DNA of 1,565 bases from Escherichia coli (GCF_024223415.1 NZ_CP100510.1); one strand, 5' to 3'. Positions 1 to 1,565 are shown, counted from the first letter of the stretch. The notes: a model not told the origin generated them from the sequence alone. A program made the numbers and translations.

Positions 1-49
1 ATGTGCAAATGTAATACCGTCACCCGCGACGATATTCCGTTTGCCATCT

Positions 50-74
50 GGTCAGGGCTTCGCCCCGACACCCC
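50..74. repeat. 25-bp perfect inverted copy of the oriT hairpin segment (exact reverse complement of 1386-1410)
   Basis: GGTCAGGGCTTCGCCCCGACACCCC at 50-74 is the exact reverse complement of GGGGTGTCGGGGCGAAGCCCTGACC at 1386-1410. The asymmetric flanks (1 nt one side, 5 nt the other) also match, so this is a true inverted duplication and not just the hairpin's own near-palindromy. Identity stops exactly at both ends. Confidence 0.9.
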
Positions 75-110
75 GCATCAGTGCGTACGTGCTCAATGTG
101 GTTTCCGGTT

Positions 111-171
111 CTCTTCCGCTTCCTCGCCCACTCGCTCACTAACGTTCGGTCGCTGGGGCTGCGGCGAGCGG
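111..171. other. Conserved ColE1/pMB1 origin-proximal block (candidate primosome-assembly / single-strand-initiation site)
   Basis: CTCTTCCGCTTCCTCGC (111-127) and GGCTGCGGCGAGCGG (157-171) are identical to the flanks of the block CTCTTCCGCTTCCTCGCTCACTGACTCGCTGCGCTCGGTCGTTCGGCTGCGGCGAGCGG that I recall lying about 45-125 bp downstream of the replication start in pBR322/pUC (similar in p15A); the middle is diverged. Same orientation as the oriT match. Function as a pas/ssi site is inferred. Confidence 0.55.
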
Positions 172-476
172 TGCCACCTCTCGCATGTTGTCGGTGATTC
201 CGCTGTTGTTCTTTCGGGGATAAGTCGTCAGATAGCCCTTCAAACGCGCTCAGAAGCTCTCAGACGCACGAAACGGGGTTTAAATGCCCGTCAGGGCATG
301 GAAGGCGCGAAAAACGCTTACAGAGCGTTTCAGGAGGTCAGGCGCGCCGATACCCCTAGCCAGGGGCTTTCAGGTCGCCAGGAACCGCGCCAGCCCCCTG
401 CAAAGCCCATTTGCACGGTACAGGCAGCCACTCGGTTGGTAGGTGGTCGTAGACCGTCGGTGTTACAGCGATGGGG

Positions 477-559
477 GTCTGGGGTTCTCCCCAGACGGTT
501 TCCGGTTGCGCTCAAGGCGCTGCCGGAACCGTGGCGGCTCGATCGTTCTGGAGATCGGG
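477..559. ncRNA. Cluster of three consecutive GC-rich stem-loops; candidate RNA I / RNA II-like antisense-control region (strand, ends and function undetermined)
   Basis: SL1 477-496: perfect 8-bp stem GTCTGGGG/CCCCAGAC, loop TTCT. SL2 497-530: GGTTTCCGG...CCGGAACC outer stem (one bulged T) plus inner GCGC/GCGC stem, loop TCAAG. SL3 538-559: CGATC/GATCG core stem, 8-nt loop GTTCTGGA. Three hairpins in about 85 nt is the RNA I architecture. Weak convergent promoter candidates flank it (see findings). No canonical terminator found. Confidence 0.3.
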
Positions 560-622
560 GAGCAAAAACACGCAAGGGATTTTGAGGCGGCAAAAGAGCA
601 ATGCAGGATAGACAACCCGATG

Positions 623-640
623 TCAAATGTTAACATTTGA
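623..640. repeat. 18-bp perfect palindrome TCAAATGTTAACATTTGA in the AT-rich spacer between the gene's 3' end and the stem-loop cluster
   Basis: Exact self-complementarity across 18 bp, seen directly. Lies in a locally AT-rich island at about 600-670; function unknown (protein-binding site, unwinding element or promoter element). Confidence 0.9.
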
Positions 641-686
641 ATCAGATTGTCCAAAAACGGGGTTTTTGCCTGTGCCTGCCGCTGGC

Positions 687-1166
687 TCAATTTGAAAACA
701 TGGCCATGATTCGGCGCTGAATATCACCGTCTTTGTTGACCAGTGTTTTAGTGACAAACGCCGCGTAGTTTTTAGATGTGTTGTATCCCTTCCAGACTTC
801 ATGTGGATCGAGTGCATACGCACAAACCTTACCAGCAACAGGAATTCTGACTAACGCGTTTTTTGATTCTAAGTAGTTGAGCCAGCGCTTAATTGTGCTT
901 CGGCTAACACCCAATTTATCTGCTAAAAACTGCTGATCGGCAACAACAGCACCGCATGAGGGATCTATGTGCTCAGCTAAAAACGAGTAAAGCGGTATTG
1001 CTACAACTCCCTGCTTGTCCTTCGACAGTTCTCGGATCCTTTCCCAGCCCTTCTGATAAACCTGGGTGAATGGGCCGTTATTTTTCGGATCTGATTCCGA
1101 TTCTTTGTTTAATTTTTCCAGTTCTTTTAGACGCTTTTTTCGCTGCTCTTCAGTCCCGATATACAT
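687..1166 (-). CDS. 159-aa winged-helix (HTH) DNA-binding protein; best guess a small-plasmid replication initiator or autoregulatory maintenance protein (RepA of tiny pKL1-type plasmids, or RepL-like). Family assignment is from memory and unverified; a cargo transcriptional regulator is the alternative.
   Basis: Only long ORF with coding-like composition. ATG is the reverse complement of 1164-1166, preceded by a GGAG Shine-Dalgarno (rc of 1174-1177) with a 7-nt spacer; stop TGA is rc of 687-689. Helix-turn-helix at about residues 77-98 (DQQFLADKLGVSRSTIKRWLNY, encoded about 873-938) followed by a wing-like segment (ALVRIPVAGKVCAYALDP). N-terminal 30 residues are K/E-rich. Upstream region is dense in operator-like repeats. 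Confidence 0.8.
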   Translation of the reverse strand: MYIGTEEQRKKRLKELEKLNKESESDPKNNGPFTQVYQKGWERIRELSKDKQGVVAIPLYSFLAEHIDPSCGAVVADQQFLADKLGVSRSTIKRWLNYLESKNALVRIPVAGKVCAYALDPHEVWKGYNTSKNYAAFVTKTLVNKDGDIQRRIMAMFSN

Positions 1167-1355: not shown

Positions 1356-1385
1356 AAAGTGTTGCGCAAAGCGGAACACTTTTTT
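1356..1385 (+). terminator. Terminator-like hairpin followed by a T-run on the plus strand, directly abutting the oriT hairpin
   Basis: AAAGTGTT (1356-1363) pairs with AACACTTT (1375-1382), plus an inner CGC/GCG stem around an AAA triloop, followed by TTT (1383-1385) and then GGGG. The T-run follows the hairpin only on the plus strand. No convincing upstream plus-strand promoter was found, so the role is uncertain. Confidence 0.3.
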
Positions 1386-1446
1386 GGGGTGTCGGGGCGA
1401 AGCCCTGACCCAGTCACGTAGCGATAGCGGAGTGTATACTGGCTTA
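1386..1446 (+). other. ColE1/pMB1-type origin of transfer (bom/oriT): recognition hairpin plus conserved nic region; predicted nic CTGG|CTTA between 1442 and 1443
   Basis: GGGGTGTCGGGGCGAAGCCCTGACCCAGTCACGTAGCGATAGCGGAGTGTATACTGGCTTA matches my recollection of the pBR322 bom region (GGGTGTCGGGGCGCAGCCATGACCCAGTCACGTAGCGATAGCGGAGTGTATACTGGCTTA) with about 2 substitutions; the 36 bp ending at CTGGCTTA are identical. Imperfect hairpin GTCGGGGC-GAA-GCCCTGAC at 1391-1409. Which strand is nicked is assumed from the motif orientation. Confidence 0.8.
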
Positions 1447-1565
1447 CTCCTCTGCAAGCCTTACCAGCTGTGATTTTTGCCAGATTTCACGCTCTCAACG
1501 TTCAACAGCTCCATCATGGTTTTGCCGTCCGTTCACCGCTAAAACGCCTCAGAAATCGGGACAGG

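Follow-up and report, generated by a model that had tools for sequence, protein, structure and literature searches.

A recurring 11-mer, a shared 8-mer and a conserved hairpin in a 1,565-bp Escherichia coli plasmid: probable coincidences beside a candidate single-strand initiation signal

Introduction

Do the short GC-rich words that recur in the non-coding region of a very small Escherichia coli plasmid belong to shared protein-recognition or RNA-structure modules, or are they products of chance? An earlier note on this DNA had drawn attention to an 11-mer that occurs twice, to an 8-mer common to a hairpin and to an inverted copy of oriT sequence, and to a likeness between that hairpin and the region upstream of bom in pBR322. 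As set out below, chance is the better reading for the 11-mer, one copy of which varies among relatives, and for the 8-mer, whose sites have different roles, while the hairpin is a conserved structural element.

The stretch analysed here (1,565 nt, referred to as the window) is a complete circular E. coli plasmid of the Col(MG828)/pKL1 type, and many 1565-bp records typed as replicon Col(MG828) are 100% identical to it.

The plasmid and its landmarks

The following features frame the non-coding region.

687-1166, minus strand: repA, the sole gene, an ORF of 159 aa (Pfam HTH_36, pKL1 type; from record annotations)
about 1170-1380: oriV, upstream of repA
1242-1292: two operator-like repeats of 25 nt, upstream of repA
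1385-1450, plus strand: ColE1-type oriT (bom), with 97-98% identity to pBR322 and ColE1 over 60 nt
1391-1409, plus strand: oriT repeat GTCGGGGC-GAA-GCCCTGAC
50-83, plus strand: inverted copy of the oriT inverted repeat (I1), 34 nt, 88% complementary to 1377-1410
111-180, minus strand as the presumed functional strand: ColE1-type primosome assembly site (ssiA, n'-pas-like), with 81-82% identity to pBR322/ColE1

By comparison with ColE1, the nic site is presumed to lie between 1442 and 1443 (CTGG|CTTA). AAAGTGTTGCGCAAAGCGGAACACTTT stands upstream of the window's bom repeat. Block 111-180 is the counterpart of the ColE1/pBR322 primosome assembly block CTCTTCCGCTTCCTCGC...GCGGCGAGCGG (81-82% identical; nhmmer E = 3.9e-07). 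A plasmid of 1549 bp, pHUSEC2011-3, is presumably a relative of the one studied here. It is reported to bear a 66-bp phiX174-type primosome assembly site (PMC6668396). In the related plasmid pKL1, oriV is reported to be located upstream of rep and to contain an IHF box and Rep-binding sites (PMC3832669), so positions 1-620 of the window should not be the Rep-dependent origin itself.

Several other candidates were considered and set aside. Coding by an ORF at 284-442 (with the hairpin as start codon) or by an ORF at 1-585 was rejected, as indels in relatives break both frames. A Xer (cer-like) site at 78-108, a Tus/Ter site at 183-196 and a DnaA box at 217-229, all proposed by eye, had too few consensus positions or were unconserved. 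A search of a phage collection returned mislabelled small plasmids and vectors only, with no link to the G4 or phiX174 origins. As a separate observation, the hairpin together with GCTTAC was considered as a second nic-like site, and what it has in common with the oriT nic region is a 6-mer only.

The two copies of the 11-mer

The recurrence of the 11-mer is exact, as had been claimed, with both copies of GGTTTCCGGTT on the plus strand. The structures concerned are the following.

100-110, plus strand: GGTTTCCGGTT, copy 1, in a spacer that varies, flanked by the conserved blocks GTGCGTACGTGCTCAAT and CTCTTCCGCTTCCTC
497-507, plus strand: GGTTTCCGGTT, copy 2, in the 5' arm of SL2 (497-530), pairing with CCGGAACC at 523-530
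477-530, plus strand: hairpins SL1 (477-496) and SL2 (497-530), which hold copy 2

How unusual such a repeat is depends on how the question is put. The expected number of 0.00 for GGTTTCCGGTT refers to one word chosen in advance and ignores the look-elsewhere effect. In 1000 dinucleotide shuffles of the window, exact direct repeats of at least 11 nt occurred with a mean of 0.27 per shuffle, and at least one was present in 23% of the shuffles. The window itself has three of them: the repA operator repeat, GGTTTCCGGTT and AAACGGGGTTT (271-281 and 655-665). Two non-operator repeats where 0.27 are expected represent a mild excess (P about 0.03 by our own Poisson estimate), and in both the GGTTTCCGGTT and the AAACGGGGTTT pair one partner is unconserved in relatives.

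Close relatives are 97-100% identical over 1-620 and consequently uninformative on the 11-mer, so distant relatives were used. In these, the flanks of copy 1 are kept (CTCAAT on the left, CTCTTCCG on the right) and the segment between them takes at least 10 different forms, including GGTTTCCAGTT, AACTACCGGTT, AGCTTCCGGTT, AACTTCTGGTT, GGCTTCCGGTT, AACTTCCGGTT, CAATACCTGCT and GGCTATCAATT; an IncX1 plasmid lacks it, and pBR322 retains GCG only (a sequence verified by database match). By contrast with this variation, positions 1-9 of copy 2 are invariant in all relatives but one, and positions 10-11 vary (TT, TA, TC, CA). Copy 2 is fixed because its first 9 nt pair within the conserved hairpin SL2. 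Copy 1 lies in a fast-changing spacer just before the ColE1-type primosome assembly site, and it came to match at 11/11 in this lineage alone, by successive point changes (AAC > AGC > GGC > GGT) added to a TTCCGGTT core of older date.

These observations bear on the proposal that the recurring motifs form one recognition module, with a common binder for the 11-mer copies and a factor shared by the hairpin and oriT through the 8-mer GTCAGGGC. The exact 11/11 identity of the copies and the mild excess of the two non-operator 11-mer repeats over shuffles speak for it. However, the copies stand 397 nt apart in unlike structural contexts and, unlike iteron-like or otherwise repeated protein-binding sites, of which all copies are conserved in relatives, copy 1 varies where its flanks are conserved, which largely refutes the proposal. 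As the copies are under different constraint and their identity is lineage-specific, the match is best read as a coincidence of composition, and chance is the better reading. The caveat that had accompanied the original observation, namely that chance was plausible, is therefore borne out for the 11-mer, which is unconserved in relatives and has a chance-like frequency.

The 8-mer

The two plus-strand sites reported earlier for GTCAGGGC, at 51-58 and 290-297, were confirmed, and a third, absent from that report, lies on the minus strand at 1402-1409. Considered as a specific word, GTCAGGGC has three sites where 0.04 are expected, and this is the remaining argument for a single module. Against it, two of the three sites belong together, as the two arms of one long inverted repeat that the oriT repeat forms with its inverted copy. 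Moreover, the word is a whole arm in both the oriT repeat and the inverted copy (at 51-58, the 5' arm in GTCAGGGC-TTC-GCCCCGAC), while in the hairpin at 284-299 it comprises the loop and the 3' arm, and the pBR322 bom repeat has GCCATGAC instead of GCCCTGAC. Taking both words together, we regard a single recognition module as highly improbable.

For an 8-mer that a 16-nt hairpin has in common with the remainder of the window, about 0.4 occurrences are expected (our own estimate, with equal base frequencies), a frequency that agrees with the chance origin allowed for at the outset. Because the structural roles differ between its sites, GTCAGGGC looks like a coincidence, a word shared by two different GC-rich hairpins with no common module, for which chance is the better reading.

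The hairpin and its conservation

The third element behaves differently. It is defined by the following features.

284-299: hairpin H1, ATGCCC GTCA GGGCAT (ATGCCCGTCAGGGCAT), with a perfect 6-bp stem and a 4-nt loop
282-325: conserved core (Block B), H1 followed by GGAAGGCGCG and AAAAACGCTTACAGAG, from alignments

The perfect 6-bp stem is as had been described, and its coordinates, previously given as 283-298, are shifted by one. A perfect 6-bp hairpin is in itself unremarkable, since one is present in 83% of shuffles, and the window as a whole is rich in hairpins (6 observed, 1.8 expected, P = 0.008). The argument for H1 comes from relatives. Its stem is kept in IncX1, IncX4, IncI2 (two copies), Arsenophonus and Sodalis (two copies) plasmids, and an IncN plasmid has the 24-mer ATGCCCGTCAGGGCATGGAAGGCG (284-307) without a mismatch in each of its five CUP repeats. 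The loop is variable (GTCA, GCCA, CTCA, ATCA, GTAA, ATAA, GACA), with its last A constant. In two further plasmids of 24 and 29 kb (L013 and L120), the hairpin reads ATGCCGC-(G/T)TTA-GCGGCAT, with a stem lengthened to 7 bp by a G-C pair inserted on both arms; this compensated stem rests on one lineage. The two changes in a single arm, seen in IncX4 and IncX1, both produce G.T on the minus strand and an A.C mismatch on the plus strand. In IncF copies the 5' arm has decayed, and these look like relics.

As single-stranded DNA, positions 270-355 are predicted to fold with z = -4.06 on the minus and -3.38 on the plus strand, and 0 of 200 shuffles fold as well. Relatives do not preserve the inner helix 312-318/324-330. 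GAAAAACGCTTACAGAG, by contrast, is conserved as sequence, a sign that specific bases, and not structure only, may be recognised. The flanking GGAAGG is likewise conserved as sequence.

The surroundings of H1 (185-620) were found in 825 plasmid records and the core (262-345) in 1629. The element is present in 598 of the 5426 complete E. coli genomes (11%), is on plasmids in 732 of the 736 places where it occurs in them, and, among the matches listed from these genomes, has no annotation beyond an occasional "hypothetical protein". A contig scan with a pattern anchored 3' of H1 was less productive: about three quarters of its matches were due to chance, among them a protein-coding gene of Melainabacteria, and the true matches were near-identical small contigs that added loop variants only. 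A full-text search of the literature for the H1 motif found vector sequences only and no paper on the motif.

On these grounds, H1 is a real, deeply conserved, unannotated structural element of plasmids, as judged from alignments and predicted folding. The possibility raised earlier, that the hairpin might also be unconserved and chance-like, is thus contradicted, and the earlier note undersold H1.

Relation to the sequence upstream of bom

The likeness to pBR322 is borne out. The pBR322 bom/pas sequence used here (301 nt) is 100% identical to several database plasmids; the motif is indeed there, as GCCCGTCAGGGC at positions 30-41 of the 301 nt, and the oriT of the window matches from position 60. 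By our own start-to-start count, GCCCGTCAGGGC starts 34 nt before the bom inverted repeat in pBR322. It is exact (12/12) in the pBR322-type sequence and in ColE1 (1540-1551), on the same strand relative to nic as H1.

The label "bom-upstream-like" is therefore apt for the 12-mer identity and the strand, but not for the position, and the flanks are unrelated. H1 lies about 406 nt 3' of the presumed nic site, beyond the ssiA-like block, whereas the pBR322/ColE1 motif lies about 20-35 nt 5' of the bom repeat. For the 12-mer alone, BLAST gives E values of 0.07-1.6. There is a further resemblance on the minus strand of the window, where TCTGTAAGCG-N17-GCCC..GGGC mirrors the TCTGTAAGCG-N18-GCCC..GGGC of pBR322.

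These data might also be read to mean that the ColE1 sequence just upstream of bom was displaced and survives as H1, a relic kept by descent only and functionless here. The exact 12-mer on the same strand relative to nic, the mirrored N17/N18 arrangement and the presence in the plasmid of other ColE1-derived blocks (oriT and ssiA) would all fit such an origin. However, the motif is not syntenic, its surroundings and E values are as given above, and a relic without function would not have persisted in plasmids as different as IncX, IncN, IncI2, Arsenophonus and Sodalis ones, one stem variant among them being compensated. We consequently hold this origin to be very unlikely.

A functional likeness is another matter. 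We take the ColE1/pBR322 segment just upstream of bom to overlap a second factor-Y/PriA site (pas-BL; rriB/ssiB). Like H1, the primosome sites of ColE1 and pBR322 (n'-pas; ssiA/rriA and ssiB/rriB; PriA-dependent) are GC-rich hairpins in non-coding DNA near oriT and ori. The differences are that H1 is on the other side of ssiA and that its stem has 6 bp (ATGCCC/GGGCAT) instead of the 4 bp (GCCC/GGGC) of ColE1. H1 is no member of the bom-upstream context, yet judging from these similarities it may work like that site.

Folded strand or duplex operator

In the conjugative plasmids, the element has a different setting. The H1 core in IncN and IncI2 plasmids is present in 2-5 copies, about 35-65 nt upstream of the promoters of leading-region genes. 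In IncN plasmids it belongs to the CUP repeats (leading region of pKM101/R46), units of about 400 nt, each with a strong promoter some 35 nt away from H1, that recur before leading-region genes. The likeness to the window consists of the identical ATGCCCGTCAGGGCATGGAAGGCG followed by a CGCGCC-like stretch. By contrast, the window has one copy, no promoter and no further likeness to the rest of the CUP unit, and it does not qualify as such a unit: BLAST matches 24 nt (284-307), and the CGCGCC stretch at 343-351 was aligned by eye. A folded promoter of the Frpo type was also considered for the IncN CUP and IncI2 elements and rejected, as no inverted repeat pairs with the promoter.

This setting raises the possibility that H1 is a palindromic operator in double-stranded DNA, the binding site of a dimeric regulator, from the host or a plasmid, that controls neighbouring promoters or replication. 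In its favour, the half-sites ATGCCC/GGGCAT stay constant around a varying spacer, the flanks GGAAGG and GAAAAACGCTTACAGAG are conserved as sequence, and the promoters downstream of H1 in the IncN CUP and IncI2 elements are sigma-70-like. In addition, CUP elements have been reported to be binding sites for the regulator ArdK (PMC6289460), which is in line with an operator. However, ArdK is IncN-specific and the 1.5-kb plasmid encodes RepA only; no promoter-like site was found near H1 in the window; and the element is also found where no gene follows. Furthermore, the half-sites of L013 and L120 are 2 bp further apart and the pairing is still perfect. This compensated stem fits a folded strand and, because the insertion moves the half-sites 2 bp apart, would poorly fit a duplex site for a dimer. 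We consider an operator unlikely as the explanation of H1.

A scan for intrinsic terminators does not list H1 either; instead of the T-run of a terminator, what follows the hairpin is GGAAGG on the plus and TTAAAC on the minus strand.

The structured region downstream

Beyond the core, the region that includes SL1 and SL2 is also predicted to fold strongly (z = -3.5 on the plus and -4.2 on the minus strand). One-sided changes in SL2 (G-C to G.T and T.G to T-A) keep the pairing on the plus strand, and in one relative (L029) the apex of SL2 is inverted with the stem and hairpin kept. The strand signals conflict: the wobbles in H1 point to the minus strand, whereas those in SL2 and in the invariant hairpin 441-457, together with the covarying long-range pair 389/459, favour the plus strand.

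These data could suggest that 276-570 encodes a structured plus-strand RNA (e.g., a regulatory or antisense RNA) of which H1 and SL2 are hairpins. The strong predicted structure, the one-sided changes of the G.U type and the long-range C-G/U-A covariation on the plus strand are all consistent with it. So is the picture of SL1-3 in the earlier note, which resembles RNA I of the ColE1 RNA I/RNA II antisense control: the three stem-loops are consecutive, start at ACAG and have the strand and side of RNA I relative to ssiA. On the other hand, SL1-3 differ from ColE1 RNA I in having no Rfam match, nhmmer similarity, promoter or terminator, and the plasmid replicates with RepA. Specifically, a search against all Rfam families at E <= 1 gave two spurious matches elsewhere only; nhmmer with window 100-700 against ColE1 returned only 106-186 (the ssiA block), with E = 7.9 for the H1 region; and neither a promoter upstream of the SL region nor a terminator after SL3 was found on either strand. 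As the wobbles of H1 moreover favour the other strand, we judge an encoded RNA to be distinctly unlikely.

Two related ideas were rejected with the same search. Positions 185-620 are not a diverged ColE1 origin, as nhmmer homology to ColE1 is confined to the ssiA block, and the 11-mer GCCAGGAACCG, noticed by eye as common to the window and the pBR322 sequence, is taken to be due to chance, as nhmmer detects no similarity there.

A possible single-strand initiation module

H1 does not travel by itself. In many enterobacterial plasmids it is part of a non-coding module, which starts with the pas-like block 111-180, continues with the H1 core and includes the structured region 340-540. The replication genes that stand about 200-700 nt or less from this module are unrelated to one another, namely pKL1 repA, RepL, pir (IncX4), a RepA-family gene and, in Arsenophonus, a "replication initiator protein A". 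In all five of these replicon types the rep gene and the plus orientation of the module are on opposite strands; a phiX174-type site would be expected on the lagging-strand template downstream of the origin. An IncX1 plasmid has a collinear, partly condensed copy of window 1-603.

We lean, at slightly better than even odds, to an explanation in which the 11-mer and the 8-mer are coincidental and H1 is real and part of a portable module for priming or establishment on single-stranded DNA (ssi). The most likely role for H1, in the light of its conservation, its folding, its linkage to rep genes and its near restriction to plasmids, would be that of a portable single-strand priming or establishment signal; the priming function and the active strand, like the fork direction, are what we infer from these. 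H1 is the best-conserved part of a roughly 45-nt core (282-325) within the portable module. When the DNA of the module becomes single-stranded, either in the wake of a fork that runs from oriV through repA or on the strand that is passed on in mobilisation, H1 and its neighbours would fold into hairpins, and host replication proteins might use these to start synthesis of the complementary strand. H1 would in that case be part of an ssi signal that acts with the adjacent PriA-type site. Since oriV is elsewhere, an accessory single-strand signal is the simplest reading.

Comparable elements are known. The ssi-like palindromes of small theta and rolling-circle plasmids (the set of Nomura et al. 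1991; pHW126, pIGRK, pIGMS31) are likewise non-essential hairpins by the rep module of small enterobacterial plasmids. In pIGMS31 and its relatives, loss of the ssi hairpin raises copy number and multimer formation (bioRxiv 10.1101/2022.12.05.519187). The function of the ssi in pHW126, pIGRK and pIGMS31 is known by deletion; that of H1 is predicted from sequence.

A bolder version would extend the single-strand signal to the conjugative plasmids. The core of ~24-30 nt (ATGCCC-NNNA-GGGCAT plus GGAAGG(C/G)G) might be a portable, host-recognised signal on the transferred strand of numerous enterobacterial plasmids, both mobilisable and conjugative, acting early in the recipient, and would represent a class of establishment signals distinct from the Frpo/ssi promoters of F and ColIb-P9. 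It could either prime the complementary strand or mark single-stranded DNA upstream of leading-region operons (anti-restriction, establishment). The placement on the transferred strand is our own polarity assignment, made for ColE1, Col(MG828) and the five IncN CUP repeats; IncI2 (two copies) and IncX share the core. This version strikes us as clearly improbable.

Implications

A practical lesson from the 11-mer is that, in a GC-rich sequence of 1.5 kb, exact 11-mers should be checked in relatives before they are called motifs. As for H1, hundreds of records already contain the sequences concerned, the proposed mechanism is familiar, and current understanding is not overturned. What emerges is a hairpin core common to IncX, IncN, IncI2 and small Col-type plasmids that is unannotated in the records we examined. 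Should it prove to be a priming or establishment signal, it would merit addition to plasmid annotation pipelines and would help to explain how gene-poor plasmids of 1.5 kb, with a single rep gene, manage lagging-strand replication and survive mobilisation.

The non-coding module in conjugative plasmids

A collinear homolog of the non-coding module of this plasmid, which comprises the pas-like block (111-180), the H1 core (the conserved block at 282-325 that contains hairpin H1) and the structured region (340-540), is found in IncX conjugative plasmids. In IncX1 (L006:2849-3450), the homolog covers window positions 1-603, with the inverted copy of the oriT repeat present and the nic region absent. 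In IncX4 (L005:2924-3138), it is located approximately 650 nt upstream of pir; additionally, window 593-698 is present in IncX4 at a second site, on the opposite strand.

The H1 core is also observed in IncN and IncI2 plasmids, within the elements that recur upstream of leading-region genes (CUP, the conserved upstream repeats, in IncN), at the following positions:

3471, 7335, 8729, 12119 and 39828: H1 core in the IncN plasmid CP088481.1 (L117)
2001 and 3999: H1 core in the IncI2 plasmid (L121)

Sigma-70-like promoters lie some 35-65 nt past the H1 core in both the CUP and the IncI2 elements, and CCCTGCAAAGCC is retained in IncI2 too, at a similar spacing (119 nt vs 112 nt).

Conservation is also seen in GCATCAGTGCGTACGTGCTCAAT (window 71-97), which is shared with IncX1, Arsenophonus and Sodalis plasmids, and the first part of which matches ColE1 shortly after nic (GCGGCATCAGTGCGG). 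Compared with ColE1, the window carries an insertion of approximately 190 nt (1447-1565 plus 1-49) between nic and this block, with the inverted oriT repeat at its border.

Structured elements and the 1-585 reading frame

Nowhere in the non-coding region is the sequence more invariant than in GGTGGTCGTAGACCGTCG (440-460), which forms a hairpin with G.T pairs only on the + strand. Covariation between positions 389 and 459 (C-G in three sequences, T-A in four) points to a long-range + strand helix. In one relative (L029:1516-1626, aligned to window 497-530), the apex of the SL2 hairpin is inverted while the stem is retained (CAGCGCCTTGAGCGCTA vs TTGCGCTCAAGGCGCTG), a flip of the type that template switching at a hairpin or cruciform should produce.

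A long + strand ORF (1-585), annotated as a "hypothetical protein" in some records, is disrupted in one relative (L004) by a 28-nt tandem duplication of GCATGTTGTCGGTGATTCCGCTGTTGTT, aligned to window 183-210.

Near-identical contigs in other assemblies

Contigs of 0.4-1.7 kb that are near-identical to the plasmid occur in Streptomyces, Mycobacterium, Flagellimonas, Streptococcus, Micromonospora, Rhizobium and other assemblies:

L025, L027, L029, L038, L044, L051, L052, L057, L080, L087, L093, L094 and others: near-identical small contigs

The small contigs in such assemblies most likely represent laboratory or reagent contamination and not true hosts.

Sequences around repA and the mosaic family

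Two features lie just beyond repA:

611-651: palindrome a short way downstream of the repA stop
653-673: 21-nt insertion, missing in the 1552-bp relatives

The outer arms of the palindrome (GACAA..TTGTC) are conserved among relatives; its inner part has at least three unrelated allelic forms, palindromic in every one, and each strand carries promoter-like hexamers that overlap the palindrome. The insertion folds as CAAAAAC-GGG-GTTTTTG and contains the second copy of the exact 11-mer AAACGGGGTTT, the first being at 271-281.

The 5′ half of repA and the operator region (870-1385) are approximately 70% identical among relatives, whereas the remainder (1-870 and 1385-1565) is 97-100% identical. 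The N-terminal half of RepA and the operator palindromes change jointly among relatives. The plasmid family is a mosaic, and one relative, L003, appears to be recombinant, its breakpoint lying near 880.
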